A stretch of 64,000 bases of DNA from an uncultured Candidatus Melainabacteria bacterium (GTDB lineage Bacteria; Cyanobacteriota; Vampirovibrionia; Gastranaerophilales; Gastranaerophilaceae). Shown in pieces: positions 5,408 through 39,800 of the stretch. Below the pieces are notes generated by a model. The model did not search any database and was not told the origin of the DNA. It saw only the letters and a list, made by a program, of their open reading frames with translations. Both the position numbers and the translations under genes were made by a program. The stretch is from the NCBI GenBank assembly GCA_949902595.1, contig CATLDC010000007.1:29496-93495 (forward strand), read 5' to 3'. The first letter of the stretch is position 1, and each line of letters begins with the position of its first letter.

Positions 5408-8400
5408 ATGAGGATGTATGTTATGAATAAAGGCTGTAAATTAACATTAGTTGTCGCGTTTGCGGCTGTGATGATTTTTAGTGCGTCTGTTTATGCAGAT
5501 GATATTGTGGTGAATTTGAAGCCTCAGGATTCTCCGACTCTTGATTATTTCAAAGAAAATAATATCCTAATTCCTCATAAAGGTGCTTTTGATAAAACTT
5601 GGGTAGAAGCAGAACCTGTAATATCTCCAAGGAGCGCCTATACTCTAACAAAAGTAGAACAAAAATCTGATAATACAATAACCAGATATGAATGGGATAA
5701 AGCTGCACAATCACTCGTGCCTCAATATTATCGTGTTGATTTGAAGAAAACAGTGTATGGAGAAGGTGAGAATGTTAAATATTATGAGTGGTCAAAAGGT
5801 GCAGATGGCATATCTACCATGGTAGAAGTGTCTGCGCCTAGTGAAGGTAAAACAACAATTGAATATCGCTATAGTACTAATAAGTATGCTCAGGTGTATG
5901 ATAATAAAGCAGAGTTAGAAGATTTAGATAATACTAAATTTACACCAGCTCCTATAAAGATAAAAGAAGATGAAACAGTATCAATTGTTGATACTTTGTT
6001 TGTCAATAATAAATATTATGATGCTTCCCAAAGTGTCGATATATACGGAGGTGCATTGTATAATGCAGGTAATGTAGAAAATATTGTTGCGGATTTTATT
6101 GGTAACAATGTTTCAACTTCAGGTAGGTATAGCAATGCTTACGGTGCTGCGATTTACAATAGTGGTAAAATTGGTGATATAACAGGTGTTTTTATAGGAA
6201 ACAGTAGTATTTCGACTTCAGGAGGATATGCCAGAGCACGCGGTGGTGCGATTTATAACGCTGGTGGAACCATCGGTGATATTACAAGTGATTTTATAGG
6301 CAACAGTGTTTCTGCATTGAATCCTTCTCCAGATTTTGGTGGTGCTGGTGGTGCGATTTATAATGAAAACGGTAGTATCGGTAATATAACAGGAAACTTT
6401 ATTGGTAACATCTCTTCTTTAGATGGCGGCGGAATTTATAATAATGGTATCGTTGCTAATATTACTGGCGACTTTATTGGTAACCTCTCTTCTTCTAGTG
6501 GTGGTGCGATTCATAACGGTGGAACTATTGGTGATATTACAAGTGATTTTATAAAAAACAATACTGTATCTGGCTTCCATGGTTATGGCGGTGCGATTCA
6601 TAACCATGGAACTATTGGTGATATTACTGGCAATTTTACCAATAATAGTATCTCTTCTAATGGTTATCTTTCTTCTGTACACGGTGGTGCGATTCATAAC
6701 GCTGGAACTATTGGTGATATTACAAGTGATTTTATAAGCAATACTGTATCTGGCTCATATAAGGTTGCTGGTGGTGCGATTTCTAATGATAGTGCAACCC
6801 TTGGCAATATCACAGGTAATTTTATAGGCAACAGTTGTTCTTCTGAAGAGCGTGCTTTTGGGGGGGCCATTTATAACACTTATGATTCTAGGGAAAGCTT
6901 TATTGGTGATATCACTGGTAATTTTATAAACAACAGTACATCTGGCTCACGTATGGCTTATGGCGGTGCGATTAGCAATTTTGCTAATATAGGACAAAAA
7001 GACGACAATGGTAATATCGTGGGAGGTATTGTAAATTCTTCGTTTATAGGTAATCACGTTGATGTTAGTCGTATTGAAGACAATAGCCTTGATTATTTCC
7101 GTGGTGGCGCTATCTATACCTCCGAAGATTTGAATATCATATCTCGTGACAATTATACTTCTATCTTTAAAGATAATTATATTAATCAAGGTTCAAGCAT
7201 TGACGACAATGCTATATATATTGATGACTATAATCACACCCTTAACTTCCAACTTGAACATGGCGGAAAAGTGTACATGGCCGATAATATTCGAGGCGAT
7301 GTTTATAATGTCAATATTACAGGTGATAATATAAATGATACGGTTTTCTATATGCTAAACGACATGTACGGTGCAAACCTGACTACCTCAAACACCACCC
7401 TCAACACCATCAACAACGCTATTCACACCTACAACTTCAACACCTTCGCTCTCACCAGTAACACCAACCTGCATGTCGACGTCGACCTGGCCAATCAAAC
7501 CATGGACCGCCTCACCGCAAAAGAATACGGCGTCCACACCGGCACCCTCAACGTCTCAGCAATGCACCTCACCTCCGACGCTACCTCTGACCACACAGAA
7601 ATCCTCTTCGCTGACCCCGGCCTTAAAGACAATGTATCAACAACAGTTACTGAAGTCGCCTACACCCCGATACATAAATACAGTGTGAACTACTCCAACC
7701 AGGATGATGGTGGGTATTTTCACTTCGATCGCGCCGGTGCGTGCTCAAACAACCCCTCTGACTCCTTTAACCCGTCCGTGCTCTCCACCCCCGTCGCAGC
7801 GCAAGCCGGTGCCCAATCTGTTGTCAATGAAACTGTCCATTTCGCCTTCCAACACATGGACATGTTCTCCCAACTCCCGTTTGCACAACGAATCGCAATT
7901 ATTAATAACAACAAGTACGCAATAAACGACCCGACCCTTACCCCAAAATACGGCTCTGAGTTTGAAATGATAAACAAAGGCTTTTGGACCAAACCCTTCA
8001 CCAGCTTCGAGCGCATCAACCTTCACCACGGCCCTGACGTCGATGCCATTACCTACGGCACCCTAGTAGGCTTCGATAGCAATTTCCGTGAGCTTAAACG
8101 CGGGTGGTACAACGTCCAATCCATCTACGGCGGCTACAACGGCTCCCAATTAAGCTACTCCGGCGTAGACTCCACCCTCAACGGCGGTGTTGCAGGTATT
8201 ACTGAAACCTTCTACAAAAATAATTTCTTTACCGCAGTTACTGCCACTGCCGGTGCAAGCGTAGGCACCAACAATACTATGTATGGCAACGAAGATTTTA
8301 CAGTTCTCCTTGGCGGCATCGGTGCCAAAGGTGGCTACAACTTCGAGTTCAAGGATGGGAAATATATCCTCCAGCCAATCATGTTCGCGAACTACTCCTT

Positions 8401-22690: not shown

Positions 22691-23974
22691 GTATCGTTTA
22701 TCCTGCTTTATATTTAAACTAGAAATTCTTGCAGTTGTTCCGACATAATTGACTGGACGTCTTTTGTTTGTGGAGTTAATTATAACTGGGATTTTTATAC
22801 AATCTCTTTTATCCACAATTTCTCTTTTAGGTAGATATTTTATGTATACAACGGCGTTTTCCTGAGTATCAATATAAACTTCGTCATAATCAGAAACCAT
22901 ATCATATATGCGCAAAAATTGTTTTTTAGTCAGTCTTTGAGATTCAATTTTTCTTGAAGAAAGTGAGTGTTTTACCTGCCTGTCTTCAAATGCAGCAATA
23001 GGAGTTTGTAACCTAATATTTTCACTTTCCAGTGCTTGAATAATTTTAGGCGCAAACCAGGTTAAAGTTAGCTCCAGTCCTCTACTGTTCAAATTGTTAT
23101 TAATTGTCTTTTTAATGAGATTTTCAAGCGCTTCTTTTGAGTGAATATTCTGCGCCATTTGTGAGATAAAAGTATCTTTCAAGTCCTGTGGCAGTTTGTC
23201 AATCTTGCTATAAGCAAGCACATCAAGATTCCAAGCATGCGCGCCCATATTGGTTGACCAACCGGCATCAGCTTGTAGGGTATACTCTTTCCCTCCAAGT
23301 TTAAAGTCGTAACAAGCAACCGGTTTTATATCGCCAGTGTCGACAAAGCGTAAGTTGCCTGCTGATTTTTCAACAGTAAGCCCAAGTCTTCTAACTTCTT
23401 CAGCAGTAAGTGCACGAATAAAGCAACGACACCCCCATCCGTTTGGAGGTAACAAATACGCCCAAATTGGGTCGTCATATCGGAATATTTTGCCGTGCAT
23501 TGCACGATGTTCTGGACGTGTATTTTCATCTAATATACACATATACTGGAAATATGGTGCAATGTCAACATCTTCAAGCTGTTGCTTATATCTTCCAACT
23601 GAATAAGCACTGTTGATGTTGTTCTGAAAAATGTTCTTAATCCGGCGTGGGGTACCAAGTTCGACTGTTTCAATCTCGCCAGTTTTAGGATTTTTAACCT
23701 CCCGAATGCCATCCCAGCCTTTCTTTTTGAAGAGTTCGCCTGCCTCTTTCTGGAAATGTCCGGTGCTCCAGCCCTCTTTAATTGCTTTTGTGAGCATATC
23801 TTGAGTGTCTTTGAGTAAATCAGCATTAGTCATCTTAGCTATCGTAAAAGCTTTTGCGTGAGCTTCCTCATAGATTTCACGCCAATAGTAAGAAGTTTTG
23901 AGGCCTTTGGACTCAAAATACTTAACAATTTCCTCCGGCTCCATATAGAAAGCTTTTTTAATATCTACGGTCAT
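22676..23974 (-). CDS. MuF/gpF minor head protein with ~170-aa C-terminal extension (putative BECR-fold RNase)
   Basis: AHAKAFTIAK, PRRIKNIFQNN, FQYMCILDENTRPEHRAMHG, PPNGWGCRC; extension with HSLSSRK...DEVYIDTQENAVVYIK...VNYVGTT. Confidence 0.85.
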   Translation of the reverse strand: MTVDIKKAFYMEPEEIVKYFESKGLKTSYYWREIYEEAHAKAFTIAKMTNADLLKDTQDMLTKAIKEGWSTGHFQKEAGELFKKKGWDGIREVKNPKTGEIETVELGTPRRIKNIFQNNINSAYSVGRYKQQLEDVDIAPYFQYMCILDENTRPEHRAMHGKIFRYDDPIWAYLLPPNGWGCRCFIRALTAEEVRRLGLTVEKSAGNLRFVDTGDIKPVACYDFKLGGKEYTLQADAGWSTNMGAHAWNLDVLAYSKIDKLPQDLKDTFISQMAQNIHSKEALENLIKKTINNNLNSRGLELTLTWFAPKIIQALESENIRLQTPIAAFEDRQVKHSLSSRKIESQRLTKKQFLRIYDMVSDYDEVYIDTQENAVVYIKYLPKREIVDKRDCIKIPVIINSTNKRRPVNYVGTTARISSLNIKQDKRYKKIE

Positions 23975-25443
23975 TGTTGTGCCCTGCCTAGCATTTCGCT
24001 GATAAAAATAACCTTTGTGAGGGCTTTTTCCAGCTCTTCAGTGTTCATCTCAGGATAAACTTCAGCAAGTTTTTCCATGGCTTCTTCAGCGTCGCGTGAT
24101 TTATAAAAGAAGTCTATAATCGGTTTTAGTGCCGGAGTGATGAGATTTTGTAAATCTTCAGATGTAAAAACATCAAAAAGTTCTGTTGGGTCTACTGGCT
24201 CATTTGCAGCAGGCTCTGAAAACGAGTTATGTGATGCTTCCGATGAAAAATCACTGTCATCGGAATCACTAAGCATTACAATATCGTCCTTATCGTAGCC
24301 GTAGGTCTTCATCATATACTTTTTAGTGAATCTTACACCGGTGTTGTAAATCTTGTTATCACGCTCCGCAAGCTTCTGGTCAACTTCCTTTTCATCATAA
24401 ATAGAGCACTTTGGTACAGATGTATCATTGAAATTAATCTCATTGATGTACTGAATCAATGTGTTTACGGTTTTTTCGCACAATCTGGTATCAGAATTAA
24501 TAATATCACCGCGCACCTGATTATGAGTGTTGGCTGCTGCATAACTTCCGACACTGCCGACATCTGTGGTTAGAGTCTGCCCAAGTATAGATTTTGAGAT
24601 ATTGTTCTCGCATTTTGTGATAAGTTTTTCGTAAATATCAGCACTCGCGCCTTTTCCTCCGGGTTCCACAATCTCAACACTTCCATCTGCGGGTATTACG
24701 CCGACCGCGTCCTGTACCATATGGATAAGTGATTTTAGTAGATTTTCTTTTTCTTTCTGATTCATAGAGCGGTCGTACTTGCCAATCATAAAAGGCATCC
24801 CGTATTTTTCTGTAAACTTTACCCAGAACTCCATACCTCCGTTAATAAATGCAACATTCCAGAAGCACCGGCTTAAAATACATTGACCATAAGGATTTTT
24901 TCGAGTCGGTTTGTTTTTCGGAAGCAGAAATTTGCGGCATTCATCGGGTTTAATCAGAAGTCCGTCAGGCTGGTAGTTTTTGTGCTTGAAGAAGAAGTCA
25001 CCTTCTGAATTAAAATGAAACCATTCTTGCGGTTCTGCTTCAAACTTGACCGGTACAATATACTTGCCCTGCTTTTCCCAAACAATCTCTATCGGTGCAA
25101 ATCCATACAATGGCGCGTCAAGAATAATTTCAATAAGTCCATGAATATCAATATTATTGAAAATGTCTTTGTAGAACTCATAGTGCGTGTCCGGCGTATT
25201 TTCTTTCACTATGTCAAAGAGTTTTGAGGTAACGCCAGCTTTTCTTGAATCAATACAGGTACCGACCTGATAATGGTTTGTAAGGTTTCTTAAGGTGTCA
25301 AGCCCTTTGCCGGTCTTTCTTAAGACAATATCAGGGTTTGGAAGCCTTGATATTGCAGCACTCATCCCCTGTACGTCGCAGGTTTTAATCATTTTGTCGA
25401 ACAGCGACAATTCTTTGTCTTTAATTTTTTTTGCAAATAACAT
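23971..25443 (-). CDS. Portal protein (Mu gp29/DUF935); probable start at 25443
   Basis: DAPLYGFAPIEIVW, WVKFTEKYGMP, CENNISKSILGQTLTT, GSYAAANTHNQVR; the upstream in-frame extension is made of repeat DNA. Confidence 0.88.
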   Translation of the reverse strand: MLFAKKIKDKELSLFDKMIKTCDVQGMSAAISRLPNPDIVLRKTGKGLDTLRNLTNHYQVGTCIDSRKAGVTSKLFDIVKENTPDTHYEFYKDIFNNIDIHGLIEIILDAPLYGFAPIEIVWEKQGKYIVPVKFEAEPQEWFHFNSEGDFFFKHKNYQPDGLLIKPDECRKFLLPKNKPTRKNPYGQCILSRCFWNVAFINGGMEFWVKFTEKYGMPFMIGKYDRSMNQKEKENLLKSLIHMVQDAVGVIPADGSVEIVEPGGKGASADIYEKLITKCENNISKSILGQTLTTDVGSVGSYAAANTHNQVRGDIINSDTRLCEKTVNTLIQYINEINFNDTSVPKCSIYDEKEVDQKLAERDNKIYNTGVRFTKKYMMKTYGYDKDDIVMLSDSDDSDFSSEASHNSFSEPAANEPVDPTELFDVFTSEDLQNLITPALKPIIDFFYKSRDAEEAMEKLAEVYPEMNTEELEKALTKVIFISEMLGRAQQ

Positions 25444-25458
25444 TTTTTGTCGTCCTTT

Positions 25459-25570
25459 TTTTACATCATGCGGAGTAGTTCCACTGTCCAGCCCCCGAAC
25501 CTGATTCACCCCTTTTACACCAGGCGGAGTAGATGGACGGTCGGGCCTACAAACCTGATTTACCCCTTTT
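25459..25570 (-). repeat. Interspersed repeat locus 1: two tandem 54-bp A units
   Basis: Minus strand GGGGTAAATCAGGTTTGTAGGCCCGACCGTCCATCTACTCCGCCTGGTGTAAAA then GGGGTGAATCAGGTTCGGGGGCTGGACAGTGGAACTACTCCGCATGATGTAAAA. Confidence 0.9.
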
Positions 25571-25657
25571 GTAAATTTCACTTTGATGGTGACCTGTAAA
25601 TTTTATCCAAGTTAGTATGTTGATATTTTGTCACCCGACCATTTCTCTACGTACGTC

Positions 25658-25717
25658 TTACACTTCACTTTCAAACTTGTAGTCTTACCTACTAATTGGA
25701 AAGTCGGTTGTAAAACC
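25658..25717 (-). repeat. Interspersed repeat locus 2: B hairpin module
   Basis: Minus strand GGTTTTACAACCGACTTTCCAATTAGTAGGTAAGACTACAAGTTTGAAAGTGAAGTGTAA. Confidence 0.85.
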
Positions 25718-25765
25718 CTTATTAATTCCTTATTAATTCGTTTCAATTGCCCCCTTAAATTGTTT

Positions 25766-27316
25766 TCAGGAATAATCCATCCAGCTCGACCTTGCTCCTC
25801 GTAAATCGCCTGTAAACCGCCTTAGATTCAATCCTTGGCTAGAAAGTATATTATTACTGCTTTTTGCGGTGTATACCTCCGGTTTTTGAAAATCTTTTTT
25901 CCCAGAAGAGATATGATTAGCAAGCGCAAGTGCCATACATCGGTCAGCGTGGGCGTCCGAGGTGCCGTCGTCGTCAAATCTTATGTTTCCGGCTTTAGTT
26001 ACGAATTTTTTGACAGAATGATAGTCGTCAATATCAACCTGCGGAGTATCAATATCAATAATGATGTTTCTGTCTTCCACAGCGGAATAGAGCTGATAAA
26101 GTATTTCGCTTTTGCTTGCATTTGTGAACTCAAAAGTTTCAACCTTGCTCAACCCGAAATCAATCTGCGCATCCTCGCCGAGCTGCGCACCAATACCGGT
26201 TGAGTCAACGCAAGCGCGACGGAGGTTCGGGAGTTCTAAGAACTTGTAAAGTATTGCTTTCTGGTCGCGGAACCGCATTTTTTTGAGCTCAATCTTGTGA
26301 CGTAAGAACTTGATATTGTTGACTTTTTCCAGAATAGAAAGTACTGATAAGTGTTTTTTGCGCGCAATATCGTAGCCAAGATACAAGTCCTTGCAACCTT
26401 TAAGCGATTCAAAATCCATAAGAATATTAGGCTCTTTTATTGCATTAAGCATTTCATAAGTAAGAAAAGCGCTAGCCTCATCCACAGCTTCGCAGCAGTA
26501 TTCCTGCCTCCATGTGTAGTCGTCTGCGCAGTCATTGCGTTCGTTTCCCAGCCATTCTTCCCGTTCTTCTTTCGTGGTCGGACGTCCATAAATCTTGTCA
26601 ACAAGCCCCTCTTCAACCGCAAGATGAATTGGCGTAATATGGTGTCCCCAATTAAGTTTACCGTCCCTGCAACGCTTTACAAACTGATAATACAAACAGC
26701 TCTGCCCGTTGTGGGTAGATAAAATACGCAGCGGATAACCCCACGTAATACAAGGTTTTGCAGCTTTCCAAAGCGCGTTCTGGTCTGAATGAAACGCAAA
26801 TTCATCCAATACAACCTTACCGCCTTTTGAACGGAACTGGGTTGGATTGGATGACAAAGCGTTGATTCTGGCGCCGTTTTTGAACTCCAGAGAAAGCGCT
26901 TTGATATCCTTTTTCTCATCAATAACGACCTCTCCGAGGTTCTTGACAGCAGCGTTGAACATCTTTGCCCATTTTTCGCAATACTGGATGTATTCCTTTG
27001 CTGCTGTGATATCAGCAGATGAGAACCACACATCAACAGGCTGGTTGCGGACTTTTAATGTTAATGCATCACGTACATCCTCATAGGACTGGATGTAGGT
27101 TGCACCGATACGGCGGGATTTTTCCCAGATTTTGATACGGGAGTCGTCTTCCAGCCACCGGCACTGATAGGGAAGGAAAAAAGCGGGTGTTTTTTCAACA
27201 GGCGGAGTAGTTCCACTGTCCAGCCTTTTACACTTCACTTCCAAGCCTGTAGTTTTACCTACCGATTGGGAAGTCGGTTGTAAAACTTCATTTACCCCTT
27301 GTTGGACTGCTTCCAT
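25766..27316 (-). CDS. Terminase large subunit (Mu gp28-like)
   Basis: FLPYQCRW, EKSRRIGAT, VVLDEFAF, STHNG, LGYDIARKKH, HADRCMALALA. Confidence 0.92.
   Translation of the reverse strand: MEAVQQGVNEVLQPTSQSVGKTTGLEVKCKRLDSGTTPPVEKTPAFFLPYQCRWLEDDSRIKIWEKSRRIGATYIQSYEDVRDALTLKVRNQPVDVWFSSADITAAKEYIQYCEKWAKMFNAAVKNLGEVVIDEKKDIKALSLEFKNGARINALSSNPTQFRSKGGKVVLDEFAFHSDQNALWKAAKPCITWGYPLRILSTHNGQSCLYYQFVKRCRDGKLNWGHHITPIHLAVEEGLVDKIYGRPTTKEEREEWLGNERNDCADDYTWRQEYCCEAVDEASAFLTYEMLNAIKEPNILMDFESLKGCKDLYLGYDIARKKHLSVLSILEKVNNIKFLRHKIELKKMRFRDQKAILYKFLELPNLRRACVDSTGIGAQLGEDAQIDFGLSKVETFEFTNASKSEILYQLYSAVEDRNIIIDIDTPQVDIDDYHSVKKFVTKAGNIRFDDDGTSDAHADRCMALALANHISSGKKDFQKPEVYTAKSSNNILSSQGLNLRRFTGDLRGARSSWMDYS
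27191..27300 (-). repeat. Interspersed repeat locus 3: A unit with nested B module, in frame in TerL
   Basis: Encodes GVNEVLQPTSQSVGKTTGLEVKCKRLDSGTTPPVEK ahead of TPAFFLPYQ. Confidence 0.9.
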
Positions 27317-27756
27317 TACTCACCTCCGCGTAAAAATTTATCCACAGATAATAAGATATCTGTATCGACATTTTTGTTTTCCTGTAAATCTTCTTCCAGG
27401 TGTTCGGCAATTTCCCGTGCCTCAAAGTTTTTGAGTTTAGGGAGTTTGTCAATCATTTTGGAGATAAAGTTCATTGTTGAACGTTCCGGAATCTCACCGG
27501 TCTCATGGAACTCTTCAATAGCTTTTGCAGTAACTTTGTTCAAAAGTTCATATAAGCCTGTATAGCAGGCATATTGTGAGCCGAGAAACTTTCGGCGTTT
27601 CTCGTCCCAGTTACCTTCTTTTTTCCAGTCGCCGAGGGTTTTGTTGGTTATGTTGAGCGATTTTGCAATCGCAGATACAGGCTTTTGCTCCTCAACATAC
27701 ATCTTCTCGGCAAGGCAGTAGTATTGTTCCTTTTTGCCCATGCTAGCGTTCCCCAA
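27316..27756 (-). CDS. Putative terminase small subunit (DUF1804-like HTH)
   Basis: AEKMYVEEQKPVSAIAKSLNITNKTLGDWKKEGNWDEKR; stop abuts the TerL start. Confidence 0.75.
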   Translation of the reverse strand: MGNASMGKKEQYYCLAEKMYVEEQKPVSAIAKSLNITNKTLGDWKKEGNWDEKRRKFLGSQYACYTGLYELLNKVTAKAIEEFHETGEIPERSTMNFISKMIDKLPKLKNFEAREIAEHLEEDLQENKNVDTDILLSVDKFLRGGE

Positions 27757-28045: not shown

Positions 28046-28254
28046 CAGAGGTTGTTAGTAATTTCTGTGTCGATTTTTTGCAGATAACTCATTTGGAGCG
28101 TATTTTGTTCAATCATTGTTGATAGTAGCTTGAAGGTTTGGCCAATAATCTCGTTCATCTGTTTTGTTGTGGACTGATGATACAGATAAAAAATCAGAAA
28201 TGTCACTCCACTTGAACCTGCAAGTTTTAAAAATTCAATAATTCCATCCGGCAT
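28009..28254 (-). CDS. Small membrane protein, holin-like (BhlA/XhlA type)
   Basis: One N-terminal TM segment (GVTFLIFYLYH) followed by a coiled segment; GAGG RBS. Confidence 0.5.
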   Translation of the reverse strand: MPDGIIEFLKLAGSSGVTFLIFYLYHQSTTKQMNEIIGQTFKLLSTMIEQNTLQMSYLQKIDTEITNNLWCPYMRKGKENI

Positions 28255-28272
28255 AGTTTAACCTCTTTTGTC

Positions 28273-28380
28273 TTTTACAATAGGCGGAGTAGTTGAGATT
28301 GGAGCCTCCAAGCTACATTTACCCACTTTTTCAACAGACGGAGCAGTTTTGACGAAGGTGCTCCCAACGGCATTTACTCC
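28273..28380 (-). repeat. Interspersed repeat locus 4: two divergent tandem A units
   Basis: Minus strand GGAGTAAATGCCGTTGGGAGCACC...ACTGCTCCGTCTGTTGAAAA then GGGTAAATGTAGCTTGGAGGCTCCAATCTCAACTACTCCGCCTATTGTAAAA. Confidence 0.85.
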
Positions 28381-28578: not shown

Positions 28579-28687
28579 AAGGGGTAAATCAGGCTTTACC
28601 ACCGACTTCACAACCGGTATGTAAAACTACAGGCTTGGAAGTGAAGTGTAAAAGGTTTCAAGTCTATCTACTCCACCTATTGTAAAA
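28579..28687 (+). repeat. Interspersed repeat locus 5: A unit with nested B module, ending at the protease RBS
   Basis: AAGGGGTAAATCAGGCTTTACCACCGACTTCACAACCGGTATGTAAAACTACAGGCTTGGAAGTGAAGTGTAAAAGG...CTACTCCACCTATTGTAAAA followed by GGAGG. Confidence 0.9.
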
Positions 28688-28698
28688 GGAGGCAAAAA

Positions 28699-29781
28699 AT
28701 GAAGTGGTGCGAAATATTCAGGACCGGAAAACATACAGATTCTAAAGGCAATAGCCGAGAATGGACAGAGGCTGATTTGCAGCAAATCTGTAATAATTTT
28801 GAATCTAAAAACTCTGATGTACCTATCTGTGTCGGACACCCTAAAACAAACAGCCCTGCTTACGGCTGGATTGAGAGCTTGAAATCTGTTGGCGGAAAAT
28901 TATACGCATCGTTTAAGGATGTACAGCCGGAGTTTCAGGAAGCCGTAAATAAAGGATTGTTCAAGACCCGCTCTATCAGCCTTACTAGAGATTTAGTACC
29001 GCGCCATATTGCTTTTTTAGGCGCACAAGCACCGGCTATTAAAGGGATGGAGCAGTTTTGTTTTGCAGATTGCGAGCCGGATGCTAATGACATCATAATT
29101 AATTTTTCCGAAAGCAAAAATGATAATGATAATGCTGATGAGTCTGCTTTGGCAGACCCCGCAGGGGCAGCGGGAATTTCTGCCCCCCTCGAAAGAGGAG
29201 GAGTTAGCGTTGAGAAAAGTGATGAAATAGGAAGCAGCACCAATATGGGGGGGAAATCAGGTTCGGAGGCTGGAAGTCCATCTACTCCGCATGTTGTAAA
29301 ACTTTCCGCGGCTTCGCCTATAGAAAAAGAAGGAGACGAAATGGACGCAGAATTAAAAAGACAGCTCGCTGCAAAAGATGAAGAGCTTGCAGCAGCTAAG
29401 AAAGAGCTCGAAAAGGTAAGGCAGGAAGCCTTAAAGAAAGAGTTTGAGGAGTTTTGTGACAATGCTATTGAGTCTGGTAATATTTTACCTGCGCATCGTG
29501 ACAATGTTTTAAACCTTTTGTTTGCAAATACCGACACTAATATCAATTTTGATGACGGCAGCTCAAAAAGCTCTAATGAAGTGCTTAAGGAATTTGTCAA
29601 AAGCCTTAGGCAAATGGACTTTCAAAAAATTAGTAATGAAAAAGACGCTCTTTCAGATAAAGAAATTAATTTTTCTGATGCTGAAGAAGTCAAAGAAAGT
29701 ATTCAGGCTTTGCAGAAAGAGTATGAAGACAAAGGTATAGGGCTCAATCCTGCACAGGCGCTTGAAAAATTGAAGGGTTGA
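28699..29781 (+). CDS. Capsid maturation protease/scaffold (Mu gpI-like)
   Basis: EIFRTGKH, VPICVGHP, PAYGWI, KTRSISL, RHIAFLGAQAPAIKGM. Confidence 0.88.
   Translation: MKWCEIFRTGKHTDSKGNSREWTEADLQQICNNFESKNSDVPICVGHPKTNSPAYGWIESLKSVGGKLYASFKDVQPEFQEAVNKGLFKTRSISLTRDLVPRHIAFLGAQAPAIKGMEQFCFADCEPDANDIIINFSESKNDNDNADESALADPAGAAGISAPLERGGVSVEKSDEIGSSTNMGGKSGSEAGSPSTPHVVKLSAASPIEKEGDEMDAELKRQLAAKDEELAAAKKELEKVRQEALKKEFEEFCDNAIESGNILPAHRDNVLNLLFANTDTNINFDDGSSKSSNEVLKEFVKSLRQMDFQKISNEKDALSDKEINFSDAEEVKESIQALQKEYEDKGIGLNPAQALEKLKG
29247..29301 (+). repeat. Interspersed repeat locus 6: A unit in frame in the protease linker
   Basis: GGGGGGGAAATCAGGTTCGGAGGCTGGAAGTCCATCTACTCCGCATGTTGTAAAA, encoding GGKSGSEAGSPSTPHVVK. 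Confidence 0.88.
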
Positions 29782-29816: not shown

Positions 29817-30197
29817 ATGATTAAAAGTTATCAAGCAGCAGCGGATATAGCCGCTTACAGATTTGTAAAGTTCACAGACGGCGGAATTGCGCCGGCTTCC
29901 GCGGGTACAGATAATATTATCGGCGTATCCGAAGAGGTTAAGAATACAGCCGGATATACGACAGACGTATATATTGCAGGTTCTTTTGCAGAAGTCGAAG
30001 CCGGTGGCGCTTTTTCTGCCGGTGATGCGTTGACCTCTGATGCAGACGGCAAGGCAGTTAAAGCAACTAATACGGACAATGTCGGTGCAATTGCAATGAT
30101 GGCCGCAAACGCCACAGGCGATATCGTGCAGGTTGTAGTTCAGTTGCAGAGAGTAATCGCAACTACAACACCGGCTAAAAATCCGGAAGAGGAGTAA
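29817..30197 (+). CDS. Capsid cement/decoration protein (DUF2190-like)
   Basis: AAADIAAYRFVK, VEAGGAFSAGDALTSDADGKAV, ANATGDIVQV. Confidence 0.8.
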   Translation: MIKSYQAAADIAAYRFVKFTDGGIAPASAGTDNIIGVSEEVKNTAGYTTDVYIAGSFAEVEAGGAFSAGDALTSDADGKAVKATNTDNVGAIAMMAANATGDIVQVVVQLQRVIATTTPAKNPEEE

Positions 30198-30271
30198 ATG
30201 AGGCTTGTAGTTGGAATACAGTAGTTGAATAGTGAATAAATTGAACTTTTCAACTATTCAACTACTCAACT
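30191..30271 (+). repeat. Interspersed repeat locus 7: degenerate A unit with a different inserted hairpin
   Basis: GGAGTAAATGAGGCTTGTAG...TAGTTGAATAG/CTATTCAACTA...CAACTACTC; supplies the stop of the cement gene. Confidence 0.6.
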
Positions 30272-30291
30272 AAATAAAGAAAGGACAAAAA

Positions 30292-31218: not shown

Positions 31219-31236
31219 ACAGCATAAGCTCGTGTG

Positions 31237-31296
31237 TTTTACAACCAACTTCCCAACTGGGAGGTAAAACTACAGACCTGGAAGTGAAGTGTAAAA
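31237..31296 (+). repeat. Interspersed repeat locus 8: B module after the capsid stop
   Basis: TTTTACAACCAACTTCCCAACTGGGAGGTAAAACTACAGACCTGGAAGTGAAGTGTAAAA. Confidence 0.88.
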
Positions 31297-32476: not shown

Positions 32477-33906
32477 CAGATTATTTACACGGTGTAGAGA
32501 CAAAACGCGAGGAGCAGCCAGCTTCCATACAGGACGCCACAACTTCTATTAACGCAATGGTTGTCTCTGTACCAACATTTTTACTTAAAGAAGAGTATCA
32601 GACTCTTAATAAACCCGTTCCAATCCGTGGTTATAGCGATATTACAAAATATGCCGGCAAAAATGTGGCAGGATTCACCGGGTATGATTCTTTGTATACA
32701 GCTATGACAGAATCAGAAGGCGCAATCATTTATATGATAAATGTCTTTGACAAAGATAAGCATAAAACATCCAAAACCATCGATACTGCTCATCTTACGG
32801 CTGGTAAATACACTATTGAAGAGCTAGGCGTTACAAATCTTGTTGTAGGAGACGGGGTTTTGGATACAGACTATACCTTTGAAGACGGTGTTATCACCGT
32901 CATCAAAGATGGCAAATTTAAAGATGCTGCGTCGGTAACAATAACCTACGATTACGCAGATATCACAAAATTGACTACAGCCGACTTTATTGGTACAATA
33001 GACGAAGATAATATAAAAACAGGGTTGCAAGCAGTATATGATATTCAGGCGCTTTATGGCGATGAAATATCTATACTTACAGTTCCGACTTATTCAGCAC
33101 TTAAGGCTGTACGCTCAGCTATGGAATCAATTGAGAGTAAGCTTAAGCTCCAGTCATATTATGACTGTCCGGTCGGAACATCTATCAATGCAGCAATTCA
33201 AGGTAGGCAGGGGGGAAATGGGACTGTTGACGCTTCAGTTGATTTGACTTCATCATCTGAAAACGGTATGTTCTGTTTTCCGTATGTTTACAGATATAAC
33301 GCAGAAACGGATAAAGACGAACTCAGACCGCCTTCTCCTGCCGTAGCAGGTATGAGGGTTCGGCTTGACAGAGAAAGAAATGTTGCAAAATCTATTGATA
33401 ACACGAAATCTCTGACAACAAACGGCACCGAGTTCCCGATAGGGTTCAGGCTTAATGACCCGACTTCTGAAAGCAATGCGCTCAATGCCAAAGGTATTTC
33501 AACTTTTATTAATTATAAGGGAAGCTACTATTTCTGGGGAGGACGCAACGCTAAATTCCCGACTGTGGATAATATTGAGACTTTTGAAAATGTTCAACGA
33601 ACTGCTTCATATATTGAACGTTCTATTCAAAATTCTTCATTCCAATGTGTGGGTGAAACTATCACTCAGGGGTTTATTGATGATGTTTTAAATATGATTG
33701 AAAGCTTCTTTAATAGACTAAAAAATCCACAGAATCAGATTATTATAGATGGGAATGTAATATATGACCCGTCACAGAATCCGGCAGAAGAACTTGCAAA
33801 GGGACATATAAGGTTTTCTTATAAATTCTGTCCTCCGCCTCCGGTTGAAAGGCTGACGTACTACTCGTTTATTGATATTCAGTTGTTGAATAGTCTCGGG
33901 GGGTAA
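32473..33906 (+). CDS. Contractile tail sheath protein
   Basis: YLHGVET, TGLQA, PPSPAVAG, LNAKGISTFI, YFWGGRN, YKFCPPPPVERLT. Confidence 0.9.
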   Translation: MTDYLHGVETKREEQPASIQDATTSINAMVVSVPTFLLKEEYQTLNKPVPIRGYSDITKYAGKNVAGFTGYDSLYTAMTESEGAIIYMINVFDKDKHKTSKTIDTAHLTAGKYTIEELGVTNLVVGDGVLDTDYTFEDGVITVIKDGKFKDAASVTITYDYADITKLTTADFIGTIDEDNIKTGLQAVYDIQALYGDEISILTVPTYSALKAVRSAMESIESKLKLQSYYDCPVGTSINAAIQGRQGGNGTVDASVDLTSSSENGMFCFPYVYRYNAETDKDELRPPSPAVAGMRVRLDRERNVAKSIDNTKSLTTNGTEFPIGFRLNDPTSESNALNAKGISTFINYKGSYYFWGGRNAKFPTVDNIETFENVQRTASYIERSIQNSSFQCVGETITQGFIDDVLNMIESFFNRLKNPQNQIIIDGNVIYDPSQNPAEELAKGHIRFSYKFCPPPPVERLTYYSFIDIQLLNSLGG

Positions 33907-34027
33907 ATCAGGTTTGGAGGCTGGATGTCCAACTACTCCGCCTGTTGTAAAAGTGGGGTAAATCAGGTTTTACAACCGACTTCCTAACTAATAGGTAAAC
34001 CTATAAATTTGGAAGTGAAATGTAAAA
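33898..34027 (+). repeat. Interspersed repeat locus 9: A unit followed by A-start plus B module; supplies the sheath stop
   Basis: GGGGGGTAAATCAGGTTTGGAGGCTGGATGTCCAACTACTCCGCCTGTTGTAAAAGTGGGGTAAATCAGGTTTTACAACCGACTTCC...TTGGAAGTGAAATGTAAAA. Confidence 0.92.
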
Positions 34028-34581: not shown

Positions 34582-34992
34582 ATGGAAAATACAAACAATT
34601 TAACATCTTTTACATCAGGCGGAGACGGATTGCCATCAAGTTTAACTCCACCTTTTGCTCCGTTATTTGATACGGATAACGCAATTACAAAGCTTGACGA
34701 ATACAAAGAAGTAAGACTCGAAAAGAAATCTGATATCGTTGAATTTACACTTCCATCCGGCAAAAAAGTTGAGATGGATTTGTCTAGGTTCAAAATCAGA
34801 ACGATTATGAACGCAAGAGCCTGTGCTCAAGGCGGATTCAAGACCACTCTTTACATACTTGCAGATATCTGTAAATTTAACGGACAGACTGTTACAGTAC
34901 CGGAAATGGACGAATGGGACGGTTACGACCTTTTGGCTCTTGAAGAGGAATGGGATAAAGCTCGTAATAATATCCCAAAGCACCAAGTATAG
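34582..34992 (+). CDS. Tail assembly chaperone (short form); -1 frameshift extends it to 35123
   Basis: Between tube and tape measure; C CCA AAG slippery site at 34974-34980; -1 frame reads SIADVVFFAHFTGWSKAEIYDMSFDEY. Confidence 0.8.
   Translation: MENTNNLTSFTSGGDGLPSSLTPPFAPLFDTDNAITKLDEYKEVRLEKKSDIVEFTLPSGKKVEMDLSRFKIRTIMNARACAQGGFKTTLYILADICKFNGQTVTVPEMDEWDGYDLLALEEEWDKARNNIPKHQV
34608..34656 (-). repeat. Interspersed repeat locus 10: variant A unit, antisense and in frame in the chaperone
   Basis: Minus strand GGTGGAG...AATCCGTCTCCGCCTGATGTAAAA; shares AATCCGTCTCCGC with locus 12. Confidence 0.7.
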
Positions 34993-35112: not shown

Positions 35113-37173
35113 ATGGCAGATAATCTTACTTTAAAACTTGTATTGAAAGCCAATGACGGCATGAGCGGAGTAGTCCGCCAAGCCGTCCGTGCTTCTGATG
35201 CAGATTTTGAAAAGCTCCAACGCAGCCTGAAGGATACCGCAGCCGGGTTTGAAGATTTCGGGAAAAAAGCAGGTATTGCAGGAGGTGCACTTACTGCGGC
35301 CTCTGGACTTAATGCTAAGCTTGCCGGAGACTTTGAAGAAGGGATGAATAATGTTTCAACGCTCATTGACACAAATGTTGAGTCTCTTGGTGATATGTCA
35401 AAAGCTATTCTTAGTATTGGAAAGGATTCTCCGAAAGCAATCAGCGATTTAACAGAAGGCCTATATTCTATACGTTCAGCAGGGATTGACGCTTCTGAAC
35501 AGTTCAATGTTTTACGCGGTTCTGAAAAACTTGCAGTCGCAGGACTTGCAACGACTGCCGAGGCCGTTGACATTTCAACATCTGCAATCAACGCTTTTCG
35601 GCTCAAGGGCGAAAAATCAGCCAAAATGTACGATATGCTTTTCAAAGTCGTAAAATACGGTAAAACCAATATTTCAGAATTTGCGCAGGGTTTTGGCTCT
35701 GTTGCCGGAGTTGTGGCATCCGCTGATATCAAGCTTGATGAGTACTCTGCTGCTGTCGCTGCAATGACCACAACCGGCGTAAAAGCCAACATTGCTCATA
35801 CCCAGATGAAAGCTGTTATTGCAGGCTTGTCCCGTGCTACCGATGACCAGGTAAAAATCTTCAACAAACTCGGCGCAAAATCTTTCAAAGACCTGATTCA
35901 GAAATCTGGAGGTTTGGTCAACGCTCTAGACAAAATTAAGACAGCTGTAGGCGGAGATGAGGCTAAAATCATTTCGCTTGTAGGTTCTGTTGAGGCCTAT
36001 AACGCAGTTATGTCACTTACTGGTGCAACAAACAAAGTCTATCTTCAGACTCTTGATGATATGAGAAATGGCGCAGACTCATTGAGCGAAGCTTATCAAA
36101 AGCAGGTATCAGGATTTAATAATCAGATGAAAATTTTAGGCAACCAATTCCAGGTACTTGGAATCAAGTTTGGTACAGGTTTGCTCCCTGTCTTAAAAAG
36201 TGCAGGAAATGTACTTAAAGGTGTTCTTGCTTTTCTCGACAGAATGCCTGAAGGGCTTACAAATGTTTTATCTATTACAGTTGCTGGTACTGGTGCTGCA
36301 TTGCTTGGTTTAAGCGGGATGTCATTTGCTATATCAGGTGCAATAAACGGATTTAACAACATGCTCTGGTTAATAAGGCAAGCAGACATTTTGATGTGGG
36401 GGTTTTCAGGGAGAATAAGTGTCGGTTTAGCAGGCATGCAAGCCGGGCTCCTTAAATTAATTCCAGCTATCCAGAAAATGGGTATTGTTATGAAAGGATT
36501 TAATCTTATATGTGCTGCAAATCCTCTTGGGCTTGTTATTGCACTCATTGGAGCTGCGGCCTTTACCGTTATGAAGTTCTGGAAACCTATAACCGGATTC
36601 TTTCGCGGGTTCTTTACGGGTTTACGAGAAGGTCTGGCTCCTATCACTCCAGCTTTTAAGCAAATTGCAGCTGCTGTTAAGCCTGTATTTGATTGGGTTA
36701 AAAAGCTTCTAAGCCCTATTAATAGTGCAGGGAAAGCTAGCGAAGATTTCGGGCATAAACTAGGAAAAGCAATTGGTGATGGAATTACTTGGTGCACTAA
36801 ATTAATCGGAAAGCTATGGGAGGTTGTTACTCTTGGCGGGCGTATTAAATTTGGCAATAAGAACGATGTATCAGGTTTTGTCAATGGCTCGCATGCTCAA
36901 GGTTTGGCGCGGGTTCCGTTTGATGGGTATATTGCAGAGACACATAAGGATGAATCAATTTTAAGTGCTCCGGAGGCGCGGGAATGGCGGAATTACAAGG
37001 CTGGTGGAAACGGCTCCCAGCCGATTGTGCTTAATTACAGCCCTAAGATTGAGGGCGGTGCGGGGCTTGACGAAGCTAAAATGCTTGCGATTCTCAAATC
37101 CAATGCACAAGAATTGGTACGGATACTTGAGGGTGTCTTAAGACGAAGAGAGGCCAGGTCTTATGGCTATTAA
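35113..37173 (+). CDS. Tail tape measure protein (TP901-like core)
   Basis: FEEGMNNVSTL, ISDLTEGLYSIRSAG, VVKYGKTNISEF, ANPLGLVIA; ends GSHAQGLARVPFDGYIAETHKDE. Confidence 0.9.
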   Translation: MADNLTLKLVLKANDGMSGVVRQAVRASDADFEKLQRSLKDTAAGFEDFGKKAGIAGGALTAASGLNAKLAGDFEEGMNNVSTLIDTNVESLGDMSKAILSIGKDSPKAISDLTEGLYSIRSAGIDASEQFNVLRGSEKLAVAGLATTAEAVDISTSAINAFRLKGEKSAKMYDMLFKVVKYGKTNISEFAQGFGSVAGVVASADIKLDEYSAAVAAMTTTGVKANIAHTQMKAVIAGLSRATDDQVKIFNKLGAKSFKDLIQKSGGLVNALDKIKTAVGGDEAKIISLVGSVEAYNAVMSLTGATNKVYLQTLDDMRNGADSLSEAYQKQVSGFNNQMKILGNQFQVLGIKFGTGLLPVLKSAGNVLKGVLAFLDRMPEGLTNVLSITVAGTGAALLGLSGMSFAISGAINGFNNMLWLIRQADILMWGFSGRISVGLAGMQAGLLKLIPAIQKMGIVMKGFNLICAANPLGLVIALIGAAAFTVMKFWKPITGFFRGFFTGLREGLAPITPAFKQIAAAVKPVFDWVKKLLSPINSAGKASEDFGHKLGKAIGDGITWCTKLIGKLWEVVTLGGRIKFGNKNDVSGFVNGSHAQGLARVPFDGYIAETHKDESILSAPEAREWRNYKAGGNGSQPIVLNYSPKIEGGAGLDEAKMLAILKSNAQELVRILEGVLRRREARSYGY

Positions 37174-37933
37174 TTTACAAACAATTTTTGATAGAACCGA
37201 AAGTTTGGATTTTTTTAAAGAAGTCAATTATACTCATCAGCAGGGTATAATAGGCAAAGCTTCTCTTGCAGCAGGGGCGGAAAACCTTAAAACTTATCCG
37301 CTTACAGTTAAACTTCATCATTCTTTCTGCAACCCGCAGGAAGTTATTGATGAAATCGAGTCAAGAATTGCTGGAAAAGAGATTCTTGACTACTTTCAGG
37401 GCTCGGTTTATATCGGAAAATATGTTCTTCAGCACCTTAACGTTGAAGTTTTAGAACAGATTGACGGGCATATAACAGCCTGTATCATCAATCTTGAGCT
37501 TCTGGAATCCGGCGAAAAAGAAGAAAGCTTTGTACAGCAGGTTGCTGATACCACGGCAGAAGGGCTCGAAAGTGTTAATAACACTATCTCCGGCAGGGCA
37601 AAAACTTTTCTTGCTTCATCCAATCCTGTTGTAAATTTTGTCAAAAAACAGGCAGAGAATATCAAAAACCAGATGTTTGACGCGGCGCTTGATATTCTTG
37701 AAAACGGCGATATTGAAGCGTTGCCGGAAATTGGAAAATTGACAGTCCGTGATATTGCTCGGAGCATTGTTTCTGATATCGAGAACCAGGGAATAACAAG
37801 TGTAGTAAGTATTACAGAAAAATATACATTAGAGGTGAATGTTCCTGGCTTAAGCCCGGAAGAATCTGAGCGGTTGGTCGATGCGCTCAAAGAGATTCCG
37901 AGGAAGATAATGGATAGTGCTCTGAGGGGGTAA
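37163..37933 (+). CDS. Phage tail protein (P2 gpU-like N-terminus with extension)
   Basis: Follows the tape measure; LTVKLHHSFCNP, YIGKYVL, INLELLE. Confidence 0.65.
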   Translation: MAINLQTIFDRTESLDFFKEVNYTHQQGIIGKASLAAGAENLKTYPLTVKLHHSFCNPQEVIDEIESRIAGKEILDYFQGSVYIGKYVLQHLNVEVLEQIDGHITACIINLELLESGEKEESFVQQVADTTAEGLESVNNTISGRAKTFLASSNPVVNFVKKQAENIKNQMFDAALDILENGDIEALPEIGKLTVRDIARSIVSDIENQGITSVVSITEKYTLEVNVPGLSPEESERLVDALKEIPRKIMDSALRG

Positions 37934-38042
37934 ATAAGGCTTGTAGGTTAGACAGTGGAACGACTCCGTCTATTGTGAAAGGGGTAAATTAGGTTTGGAG
38001 GCTTCAAGTCCGACTACTCCGCCTGATGTGAAAGGGGGTAAT
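37926..38042 (+). repeat. Interspersed repeat locus 11: two tandem A units flanked by GGGGGTAA
   Basis: GGGGGTAAATAAGGCTTGTAGGTTAGACAGTGGAACGACTCCGTCTATTGTGAAA GGGGTAAATTAGGTTTGGAGGCTTCAAGTCCGACTACTCCGCCTGATGTGAAA GGGGGTAAT then ATG. Confidence 0.92.
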
Positions 38043-38258: not shown

Positions 38259-39235
38259 TCTACAAACCAAACGTATTTCTTACTTATAACGGTCATGATG
38301 TCACAGAAGATTTTAGTCCGTATCTATTGGATGTTACTTATACTGATTTCGAAAAAGACCAGTCTGATGAACTCGACATCCGGCTAAAAGACAATGATGG
38401 CAAATTCAGAGATACATGGTCTCCGCGTAAAGGGGATAAGCTTGCCTGTACTTTATTTCCACAAAACGGTGGAACTTTAGAATGCGGAGCATTTACTATT
38501 GACGAAGTTGAGTATTCTGGCGACGAATCCGGTGACATCTGCACGATGCGTGCTCTGGCTGCAACAATAAACAAATCCGTAAGAACCCGCTTCACTCGCG
38601 GATATTCCGGTAAAACCCTTGTTGATATCGCCCGCGAAATCGGTGCACGTCACGGATTTGAAGTCATTGGAAATGCGGGATTTGTATATGTCGACACCAT
38701 TACTCAAGCAGGTGAAACCGACCTTTCTTTTCTGAACAGGGTTGCTTCAATGTACGGCTATACATTCAAGATAACTGATAACAAGCTTACTTTTATGCCG
38801 GTGGAAAATCTAGAAAACTCCGATATACTATTAACTTTTAATAAATCGAATATTAAAAGCTATTCTTTTACAGATACATCAACAAAAATGTACGGAGCCT
38901 GCACAGCTTCTTATTATGACCCAAAGACAAAGAAGCTCAAGAACTATACGGCAAGAAATACGAATAGTCTTTCAAAAGACACATTAAAGCTTTCTAATAA
39001 GTATATTTCATTAGACGCTGCAAAACGTGCGGCCAATATCGGACTCAAAAACGGCTCAACAGAGGTCACAGGCGCAATAACACTGAAAGAAAGTAATAGT
39101 AATTTTATTGCTGGGGTAAATGTGGAGTTTGTTGACGATTTTGGTGTTTATAACGGCAGATATCATATCACTCAAACTACGCACATAGTGTCTTGCGGGG
39201 TGTATGAAGTATCAGGAGAAATAAAGAAATGTTAG
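38246..39235 (+). CDS. Baseplate hub / late control gpD-like protein
   Basis: DQSDELDIRL, GAFTIDEVEYSG, TQAGETDLSFLNRVA, YHITQTTH. Confidence 0.85.
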   Translation: MEAVIYKPNVFLTYNGHDVTEDFSPYLLDVTYTDFEKDQSDELDIRLKDNDGKFRDTWSPRKGDKLACTLFPQNGGTLECGAFTIDEVEYSGDESGDICTMRALAATINKSVRTRFTRGYSGKTLVDIAREIGARHGFEVIGNAGFVYVDTITQAGETDLSFLNRVASMYGYTFKITDNKLTFMPVENLENSDILLTFNKSNIKSYSFTDTSTKMYGACTASYYDPKTKKLKNYTARNTNSLSKDTLKLSNKYISLDAAKRAANIGLKNGSTEVTGAITLKESNSNFIAGVNVEFVDDFGVYNGRYHITQTTHIVSCGVYEVSGEIKKC

Positions 39236-39747
39236 TATTTGGTAATGTTATAGCTATTGATGAAGCAAAAGCCAGAGTTCGGCTTAAACTTCCGGACATG
39301 GATGATTACGAGACTCCGGGTTGGATTTTTGTTCCGCAGGCTTGCACTGTCGGGGATAAATCTTATAACCTTCCGGCAATTAATACGCTTGTCGCAGCAG
39401 TTATGGACAGTGAAATGCAGGACGGATGCCTTCTCGGAGCCCTCTATAACGACGAAGATGTCTGTATCCTGGGCGATAAAAATGTTAAGTACATCAAATT
39501 TGAGGACGGGGCTTATTTTAAATACGACAAAACAACCGGATTCTTTGAAGGCAAAGCACCTAATAAAATCTATATGGAAGCACCTGTAATTGAGCTTAAA
39601 GGTGATGTTGTAAATACCGGGAACTTTTCTTCAACAGGTCAGGTTTCTGACAACAAATCTTCAATGCAGGCTATGAGAGATGTTTATAACTCTCATACTC
39701 ATACTTGTCCGGATGGAACGACAAGCACAGCAATGGGGCAAATGTAG
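39229..39747 (+). CDS. Baseplate spike (gpV)
   Basis: ARVRLKLPD, YNLPAIN, GCLLGALYN; C-terminal iron-binding HTH residues YNSHTHT. Confidence 0.88.
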   Translation: MLVFGNVIAIDEAKARVRLKLPDMDDYETPGWIFVPQACTVGDKSYNLPAINTLVAAVMDSEMQDGCLLGALYNDEDVCILGDKNVKYIKFEDGAYFKYDKTTGFFEGKAPNKIYMEAPVIELKGDVVNTGNFSSTGQVSDNKSSMQAMRDVYNSHTHTCPDGTTSTAMGQM

Positions 39748-39800
39748 CTGGTAGGATTGACGTTAATCCGTCTCCGCTTATTGTGAAAGGGCAAATGTAG
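39735..39800 (+). repeat. Interspersed repeat locus 12: variant A unit flanked by a 12-bp direct repeat
   Basis: GGGCAAATGTAG at 39736-39747 and 39789-39800; core GTAG followed by palindrome GGATTGACGTTAATCC. Confidence 0.85.

Follow-up and report, generated by a model that had tools for sequence, protein, structure and literature searches.

The stretch of DNA analysed here, referred to as the window (64,000 nucleotides (nt), C7:29496-93495), comes from a genome of 2.1 Mb with 40% GC content and 99.8% completeness; the terminase relatives that carry names, and the genomes that share its repeats, are metagenome-assembled genomes (MAGs) of Candidatus Gastranaerophilales (Melainabacteria). A Mu-like prophage spans approximately 14.6-46.8 kb of the window, with Pfam and PHROG matches identifying Portal_Mu, Phage_Mu_F, Mu Gp36, a Mu-like protease, tube, sheath and tape measure, and a transposase/MuB/GemA/Gam module is found in relatives. 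Its late genes form divergent operons that split at about 28.5 kb, with TerS, TerL, portal and MuF transcribed leftward and the protease, capsid, tail and baseplate genes rightward. The subject of this report is a family of very short repeats, principally units A and B, that lie between these late genes and also, in frame, within three of them. The genes and inserts concerned are as follows.

25766-27316, minus strand: TerL, large terminase subunit (Terminase_6N, Pfam E=3.7e-13; about 2000 homologues)
27191-27298, minus strand: composite in-frame insert in TerL, 108 nt, codons 7-42 (delimited by nhmmer and by empty homologues)
27316-27756, minus strand: small terminase-like DNA-binding protein, TerS (DUF1804/Phage_terminase)
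28699-29781, plus strand: head maturation protease/scaffold fusion, Mu gpI-like (phrog_976, E=4.6e-67; weak Mu-like_Pro match)
29248-29301, plus strand: in-frame A unit, peptide GGKSGSEAGSPSTPHVVK, in the acidic linker of the protease-scaffold gene (nhmmer E=1.2e-17, 29249-29303)
34582-34992, plus strand: presumed tail assembly chaperone, 136 amino acids, between Phage_tube and PhageMin_Tail
34606-34659, minus strand: antisense A unit (with 6 nt of preceding tail) in the chaperone gene, plus-strand peptide SFTSGGDGLPSSLTPPFA after codon 8

Repeat units were defined by repeat finding and by nhmmer profiles built from the window copies, with family matches reaching E-values of 1e-15 to 1e-22. 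Unit A, of about 54 nt, has a head (GGGGTAAAT), a variable middle and a tail (ACTACTCCGCCTGTTGTAAAAG), and the consensus of 24 copies (GGGGGTAAAT-nAGG-CTTGTAGGCTTGAC-n6-ACTACTCCGCCTGTTGTAAAAGG) is likewise conserved at its ends and variable between them. Only imperfect, CAGG/CCTG-based pairing joins those ends; no structure is predicted for the unit, and RNAalifold run on the 24 A units returned no consensus structure. Unit B comprises about 61 nt plus the same head as A (GTTTTACAACCGACTTCC...GGAAGTGAAGTGTAAAA), nests directly after an A head, and forms a three-helix hairpin with 7-bp ends (TTTTACA/TGTAAAA), in which 90.6% of cells are paired versus 33-49% with slid partners, two pairs are compensatory, and single-sequence folding gives z-scores of -2.4 to -2.8. 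Units of the family measure 39-74 nt, further modules occur in relatives (including a 39-nt hairpin, C), and an Rfam search of the repeat units gave no match. The first-pass annotation of the window, made from its letters and open reading frames (ORFs), had put the length at about 54 bp, a multiple of three; this holds for the coding copies and for the tandem spacing, while individual units vary from 54 to 57 nt.

The TerL insert is composite, consisting of an A head (27286-27298), a nested B hairpin (approximately 27226-27285) and the 3' part of an A unit (27191-27225), with nhmmer matches to unit B at E=1.8e-22 (27226-27299, minus) and to the A 3' part at E=4.1e-07 (27191-27248). The protein begins MEAVQQ-GVNEVLQPTSQSVGKTTGLEVKCKRLDSGTTPPVEK-TPAFFLPYQ, the middle segment being 36 stop-free repeat codons placed before the FFLPYQ motif, of which L48, Y50 and Q51 are invariant in 17 aligned TerL sequences. 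The A of the TerL ATG (27314-27316) is also the last base of the TerS stop codon (TAATG), the ATG is preceded by GGAGGTGA, and the same stop-start architecture occurs without the window's insert in the relatives L001, L004 and L006. Between the repeat and FFLPYQ there is no ATG, GTG or TTG, and the next methionine after the motif lies past the Walker A segment, KSRRIGAT. With no usable downstream start, the repeat-encoded residues must be in any functional TerL. That no start codon separates repeat and motif, and that up to 36 repeat-encoded residues enter the protein, had been claimed from the sequence beforehand and is borne out, the codons falling within 2 nt of the 27191-27300 then proposed; a TTG and a GTG inside unit B had gone unmentioned.

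Sixteen TerL homologues were aligned and compared together with members of the 90%-identity cluster, and a series of filled and empty alleles emerged. In P0002 and P0003, which are 85-86% identical, the N-termini read MTANQQ|TPSFF and MTTALQ|TPSFF, so that the insert lies exactly between codons 6 and 7. Empty alleles also occur within the 90% cluster (P0157, P0163, MSKAQSPSFFLPYQ), and MTTALQTPSFFLPYQ likewise is without the insert. A form with unit A only is carried by P0156 of this cluster (MEAVQQ-GVNKVWRLDSGTTPPVEK-TPAFF) and by L042. Two other repeat families fill this same N-terminal spot in relatives; an unrelated host palindrome, termed P, stands there in frame in P0001 and P0155, both of the 90% cluster (ISPSPQGEGRDEGS), and in L004. 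Homologues of TerL, protease and chaperone that are devoid of the DNA repeat do not carry the corresponding peptides, as the first-pass annotation had anticipated.

These alleles bear directly on whether the inserts are read at all. Were they untranslated, TerL would need a start further downstream, or else its insert would be lost from the RNA or bypassed by the ribosome. A downstream start might be sought at the in-frame TTG (codon 25, 27242-27244) or GTG (codon 27, 27236-27238) of unit B, but neither has a Shine-Dalgarno sequence, initiation at either would still leave 16-18 repeat-encoded residues ahead of the conserved sequence, and the A-only allele of L042 has no in-frame ATG, GTG or TTG other than its start before FFLPYQ. 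An N-terminus downstream of the insert is thus ruled out for TerL by that allele, together with the conserved TAATG overlap and GGAGGTGA. Bypass is unnecessary for a stop-free insert of exactly 108 nt, the coding indels are always multiples of three (54, 39, 108 and 105 nt), a pattern to be expected only of inserts that are translated, and inserts of 54-108 nt are far below the size of known self-splicing introns. An untranslated insert is very unlikely. Gene architecture, the allele series and selection point instead to translation, which for the TerL insert would yield peptides of the MEAVQQGVNEVLQPTSQSVGK type.

How the terminase accommodates such an extension is suggested by an AlphaFold2 model (17-sequence alignment, mean predicted local distance difference test score (pLDDT) 77.8), in which the ATPase-nuclease fold begins at about residue 45 and residues 1-43 have pLDDT values of 28-35 and no secondary structure. 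The N-terminus thus appears, on the model, to be a disordered and permissive insertion site. It is also not the only one: in the TerL of P0166 (L044:3035-3140), also of the 90% cluster, a 105-nt in-frame nested composite, made of two heads, a B-like core and an A tail, adds 35 amino acids (GVN...TTPPDVK) to the ATPase domain, where it separates DVRDAL from TLKV, a site that corresponds on the window TerL model to the loop joining helix 72-86 to strand 95-99.

Two further genes of the window carry single units. In the protease the unit, placed at 29247-29301 beforehand, lies at 29248-29301; the L004 orthologue reads ...SSTNM-PPAVP... at that place, and L001 and L006 are without the whole segment. 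In the chaperone gene the antisense unit, previously given as 34608-34656, proved to be a clean 54-nt, 18-residue insertion, as seen by comparing the window (MENTNNLT-SFTSGGDGLPSSLTPPFA-PLFD) with L004 (MEFTNNLT-PLFD). The reverse complement of this insert ends CCGTCTCCGCCTGATGTAAAAG, and nhmmer yields a partial match only (34604-34624, minus, E=0.013). The gene itself has neither a Pfam nor a PHROG match and is named from its position alone. Its insert uses the same antisense frame (PFTTGGV) as one in the L004 tape measure. All three inserts of the window are stop-free multiples of three in the frame of the host gene, with none of the signature of a bypass element.

The closest comparison is provided by L042, a metagenome contig 98.6% identical to 15.7-37.2 kb of the window (21.5 kb). 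All six indels longer than 10 nt between the two lie in repeat units, and the two in coding DNA measure 54 and 39 nt. The first is unit B of TerL, present in the window and absent from L042 (net 54 nt); in the second, the protease A unit of L042 holds an additional nested 39-nt hairpin, C, that adds 13 amino acids. This perfect nested hairpin (CTTCGGCAGACCGTGTTGCGGAAGCAACACCCGCTGCCG) stands in L042 at CTACTC|CGCC of two A units, the protease unit being one of them; its copies (L042:3222-3260 and 7912-7950) are 4.6 kb apart and stop-free in six frames, and their identical position implies that the hairpin inserts site-specifically or that A units convert one another. Hairpins C and D are absent from the window's own genome by blastn. 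The tandem A arrays upstream of the portal gene and of the gene starting at 28254 each hold two units in the window against a single one in L042, and upstream of TerS L042 has an extra block of about 131 nt that represents a further unit type. Repeat copies have thus been gained, lost, nested and changed in tandem number between phages that are 98.6% identical.

The same comparison addresses whether the prophage is a decaying remnant in which inserts are tolerated as genes no longer matter. The prophage adjoins the same flagellin gene in every other sample with a readable flank, with no sign of recent transposition, as a remnant might; differing host flanks, looked for as evidence of active transposition, were not found among these samples. 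All morphogenesis ORFs are intact, however, and related phages with other inserts keep every frame open. TerL differs from its L042 counterpart by 27 synonymous and 9 non-synonymous changes, a ratio of non-synonymous to synonymous rates (dN/dS) of 0.08; the chaperone value is 0.06, and six further genes bring the range over eight genes to 0.02-0.34. Since the TerL A insert and the chaperone insert are common to both phages, it is the insert-bearing genes themselves that are under purifying selection, and decay is a very unlikely explanation.

Units in frame are not limited to these three genes. L004 has an antisense unit in its tape measure (PPFTTGGVDGVKTSQSHL) and a unit in a second antisense frame in MuF (SYNRRSSSDVKPTNPIYP), and its transposase gene contains antisense A and B matches, for which the reading frame was not checked. 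In-frame units contribute about 50 amino acids to the portal N-terminus of L006, and L041 has one in baseplate J (GVNEASSLDDGTTPPVVK). A second prophage of the window's genome (L021, C8:41000-54000), lambdoid with integrase, YqaJ, DnaB and RusA, has two tandem A units (6626-6738, minus) that form the last ~45 codons of the DnaB-helicase ORF (...EVNVISSLDSTATPPVEKGVNVISSLDSTATPPVVKVGRGKGWI*). A host gene is affected as well, NIF3/DUF34 on a RUG14285 contig (L017:1664-1720), where an in-frame A unit (GVNKGWSQIHPTTPHVEK) is directly followed by a head-like GGGGTAGAA; three tandem A units follow pdxJ on this contig. The initial description of the host genes as essential virion proteins holds with respect to the in-frame copies, but a packaging enzyme, a protease and a presumed chaperone are absent from the mature particle. 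In relatives, units do lie in true virion proteins.

Nearly all copies in the genome lie within 25.4-39.8 kb of the window, where there are some 18 units at 12 loci. Outside the late region of the prophage it has only the two tandem units of the second prophage (C8) and two weaker single copies in host intergenic DNA, upstream of recA and beside an ABC-F gene. A units also lie between housekeeping genes in other Gastranaerophilales MAGs. In a sample of 121 genomes of the order, only this genome and one other of the same genus were multi-copy, and a scan of IMG/VR for the A tail pattern found nothing. Most copies are intergenic and often stand right after a head-like GGGG(G)TAA stop/ribosome-binding junction. 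Those of the window are listed below.

25456-25567, minus strand: two tandem A units upstream of the portal start (one unit in L042)
25656-25728, minus strand: B hairpin in the TerL-portal spacer (nhmmer E=6.5e-19; also in L004, not in L001)
28270-28378, minus strand: two A units upstream of the gene that opens the leftward late operon, ATG 28254 (one hybrid unit in L042)
28580-28691, plus strand: head, B and A 3' part directly before the protease ribosome-binding site (nhmmer E=8.2e-22)
31229-31296, plus strand: B hairpin in the spacer that separates the major capsid and gp36-like genes (nhmmer E=2.1e-19)
33899-34027, plus strand: A unit, then head and B, between sheath and tube (sheath stop 33904-33906 within the A head)
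37925-38042, plus strand: two tandem A units flanked by AGGGGGTAA (first copy holds the stop of gene 37163-37933)
39736-39800, plus strand: single A unit flanked by an exact 12-nt direct repeat, GGGCAAATGTAG (first copy ends gene 39229-39747)

Several of these loci have target-like flanks or stop codons within a head. The 9-nt direct repeat around the tandem A units lies at 37925-37933 and 38034-38042, and the 12-nt repeat at 39736-39747 and 39789-39800; at the latter the upstream gene ends ...GQM*, and its homologues also end in Met, their DNA showing a tight ...ATGTAA(TA)ATG junction. The sheath C-terminus is LGG* in the window versus LGA* in L006, and the stop codon of gene 29817-30197 is likewise inside an A head. 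The copy at 28580-28691 is 91% complementary to that in TerL, and the capsid/gp36-like spacer of relatives has other units at other positions. The inserts in NIF3 and DnaB are likewise followed by head-like sequence, which is present at the empty site of the chaperone gene too. Such flanks fit insertion or template switching at head-like stop/ribosome-binding motifs.

The intergenic copies also suggest a different account, namely that the units serve as cis-elements (for instance hairpins that stabilise or process mRNA, or standby or enhancer ribosome-binding sites) selected at gene junctions, with the intragenic copies as by-products. The head AAAGGGGGTAAAT resembles a Shine-Dalgarno sequence, units often stop 5-20 nt short of the ribosome-binding site of the next gene, and all nine independent intergenic loci of the window are oriented with their genes, most of them in L001 and L004 too, while intragenic copies across the phages are about half sense and half antisense. 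The protease-linker unit, too, occupies a junction-like position within its gene, about 13 codons upstream of a conserved internal Met preceded by AAGGAG. Insertion at oriented stop/ribosome-binding motifs would explain the co-orientation equally well, however, and an antisense intergenic copy lies downstream of MuF in L001 and L004. Copy number and position vary between 98.6%-identical phages, orthologous junctions in relatives are tight stop-start overlaps without a unit, and unit A has neither a consensus fold nor an Rfam match. A primarily regulatory family accordingly appears unlikely, although less so than untranslated inserts or a decaying prophage.

That internal Met of the protease gene (EGDEM, window 29341-29343, just past the linker) probably marks where a nested scaffold protein begins, an arrangement like that of Mu gpI/gpZ.

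Taken together, the evidence favors, with good confidence, modular and very small mobile or recombining repeats whose copies persist inside genes only where the site is permissive and they ride in frame as passengers. Movement would be of the copy-and-paste type, by insertion or template switching at head-like sequences, and would be accompanied by unequal crossing-over and gene conversion among copies. Landing at oriented head-like motifs would account for the sense orientation between genes, and selection within genes would retain those copies that are a multiple of three, stop-free in the host frame and situated in a permissive segment, such as an N-terminus, linker or loop. In TerL the ribosome would begin at the ancestral ATG coupled to TerS and read 36 repeat codons ahead of the ATPase fold; for the protease and for the chaperone the figure would be 18 repeat-encoded codons each. 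The encoded peptides are most likely disordered passengers without a function of their own.

Several observations weigh against this interpretation. The strict sense orientation of the nine intergenic loci could reflect a selected function. The TerL insertion has neither a head-like target nor a flanking duplication, so that target specificity is not general, and the constant flagellin-gene neighbour gives no sign of current lytic competence. No mobilising enzyme was found either: a Y1/RAYT transposase (PF01797) is absent from the 99.8%-complete genome, and contigs with TnpB and DDE_Tnp_1, examined in this genome only, have no A/B-like ends.

The P palindrome offers an instructive comparison in this regard. 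It is a GC-rich family (CTCCCTCTCC-N4-GGAGAGGG-YYGGGGTGA) with at least 42 copies in the host chromosome (e.g., C13:40440-40530), and on C13 an A unit lies within the loop of a P palindrome. Because inverted P copies bracket all three genes for DUF559, a Vsr-like nuclease (C10:44043-44351, C1:11518-11835 and C10:51053-51376; L045-L047), DUF559 is a candidate mobiliser of P. Both P and A/B are found in frame at the same N-terminal spot of TerL in different phages; they differ in that P is another sequence family, chromosomal and with a candidate mobilising gene, and A/B is without one.

Among known repeat systems the nearest likeness is to the Rickettsia palindromic elements (RPEs), sequences of about 100-150 bp in Rickettsia chromosomes that each encode one conserved peptide (Ogata et al. 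2000, via review PMC10969869). As with RPEs, a dispersed family is found in frame in unrelated functional genes at positions compatible with the fold, and also between genes, with no known transposase. In contrast, the units described here measure 39-74 nt, are modular, nest in one another and are concentrated in the genomes of Melainabacteria phages; unit A shows little palindromy, and four or more reading frames are in use (sense GVN...TTPPVVK and GKSG...; antisense PFTTGGV... and SYNRRSS...). The parallel with RPEs drawn in the first-pass annotation is therefore apt as a manner of working and fails as membership, given the unit length, the barely palindromic unit A and the unrelated lineage.

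[quoted passage not shown] The present family is similarly small, non-coding, multi-copy, polymorphic for presence or absence, found in prophage and host of one lineage, and occasionally fused in frame. However, unit A has no clear terminal inverted repeats and B has 7-bp ends only, no parent insertion sequence was found in the window's own genome, and flanking duplications (12 nt and 9 nt; none at TerL) occur at some sites only and have a head-like, not an arbitrary, sequence. The density in one phage, about 18 units in 15 kb, also contrasts with the few per viral genome of PMC11602168. REP/REPIN sequences with RAYT (PMC3733652, PMC3116915) share the short hairpins, the tandem and nested arrangement and, in both A and B, GTAG...CTAC pairings, but the genome has no Y1/RAYT and no high-copy chromosomal spread, and a stable palindrome is lacking in unit A. 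Translational bypass elements (T4 gene 60 and the mitochondrial byps) differ in that the inserts here never block the frame. On the best reading, then, the A/B family works like RPEs but is not an RPE, a classical MITE or a REP. Other identities were considered and set aside. A CRISPR-like mini-array or solitary repeat was suggested by the conserved 35 nt of tail plus head around some 20 variable nt, but the genome has no CRISPR array and single units would be half "repeats". A tRNA-derived or attachment-site origin was rejected since the single matches in many related genomes are chance 2-mismatch hits to the PyrG N-terminus (ITGGVVS), with no tRNA there. A mini-ORF per unit (Shine-Dalgarno-ATG...TAA) fails in that only some copies have an ATG after the head, an integron attC-like reading in that there is no integrase and the core sites are unfit, and mini-Mu elements mobilised by MuA in that phage-end sites are absent from the units.

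A more far-reaching proposal, which we hold only tentatively and judge to be rather doubtful, is that these are ultra-small (39-74 nt) nested mobile elements forming a distinct, undescribed class specialised for coding-dense phage genomes. Such elements would insert into oriented GGGG(G)TAA stop/ribosome-binding motifs and, when nesting, at a fixed position of the receiving unit, and lengths of 54, net 54 and 39 nt, all multiples of three, combined with few stop codons, would let them survive inside genes. If so, the termini and loops of TerL, portal, tape measure and baseplate proteins would be continually rewritten as a side effect, possibly altering their recognition by STAND/Avs-type receptors, which are host sensors of conserved phage proteins (PMC13581612).

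Because phage genomes are almost entirely coding, a selfish repeat is short of room in them unless it can reside inside genes, and filled and empty alleles among near-identical phages indicate that selfish repeats can live there. The packaging ATPase, portal, protease, tape measure and baseplate proteins gain and lose tiny repeats without being broken, which makes the repeats a fast source, not documented before, of indels in the phage proteins that are most conserved; the literature searched contains no account of such repeats in genes for phage morphogenesis, or in phages of Gastranaerophilales. Tagging could be guided by the insertion sites, since 13-36 extra residues are tolerated in nature at these places in TerL, portal and other proteins. 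For annotation, the consequences are over-called start codons and N- or C-terminal extensions that are spurious. The portal ORF is an example: it is called in public assemblies as 23971-25581 (minus), 536 amino acids with a GTG start, and it runs through two A units. From relatives and the ribosome-binding site, the true start is predicted to be ATG 25443 (490 amino acids, MLFAKK...), the longer call being an over-call attributable to the two A units in the extended ORF.

Two other features of the window were observed. At 30186-30275, past the A-like head with the stop of gene 29817-30197, a different long hairpin (CAGTAGTTGAATAGTGAATAAATTGAACTTTTCAACTATTCAACTACT) fills the slot usual for B or the A body. 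Outside the late region, a large ORF has tandem degenerate repeats at 6140-6973, with GGAIYN/GDIT-type motifs at a spacing of 75-255 nt, and looks like an autotransporter or polymorphic-membrane-protein-like surface protein.

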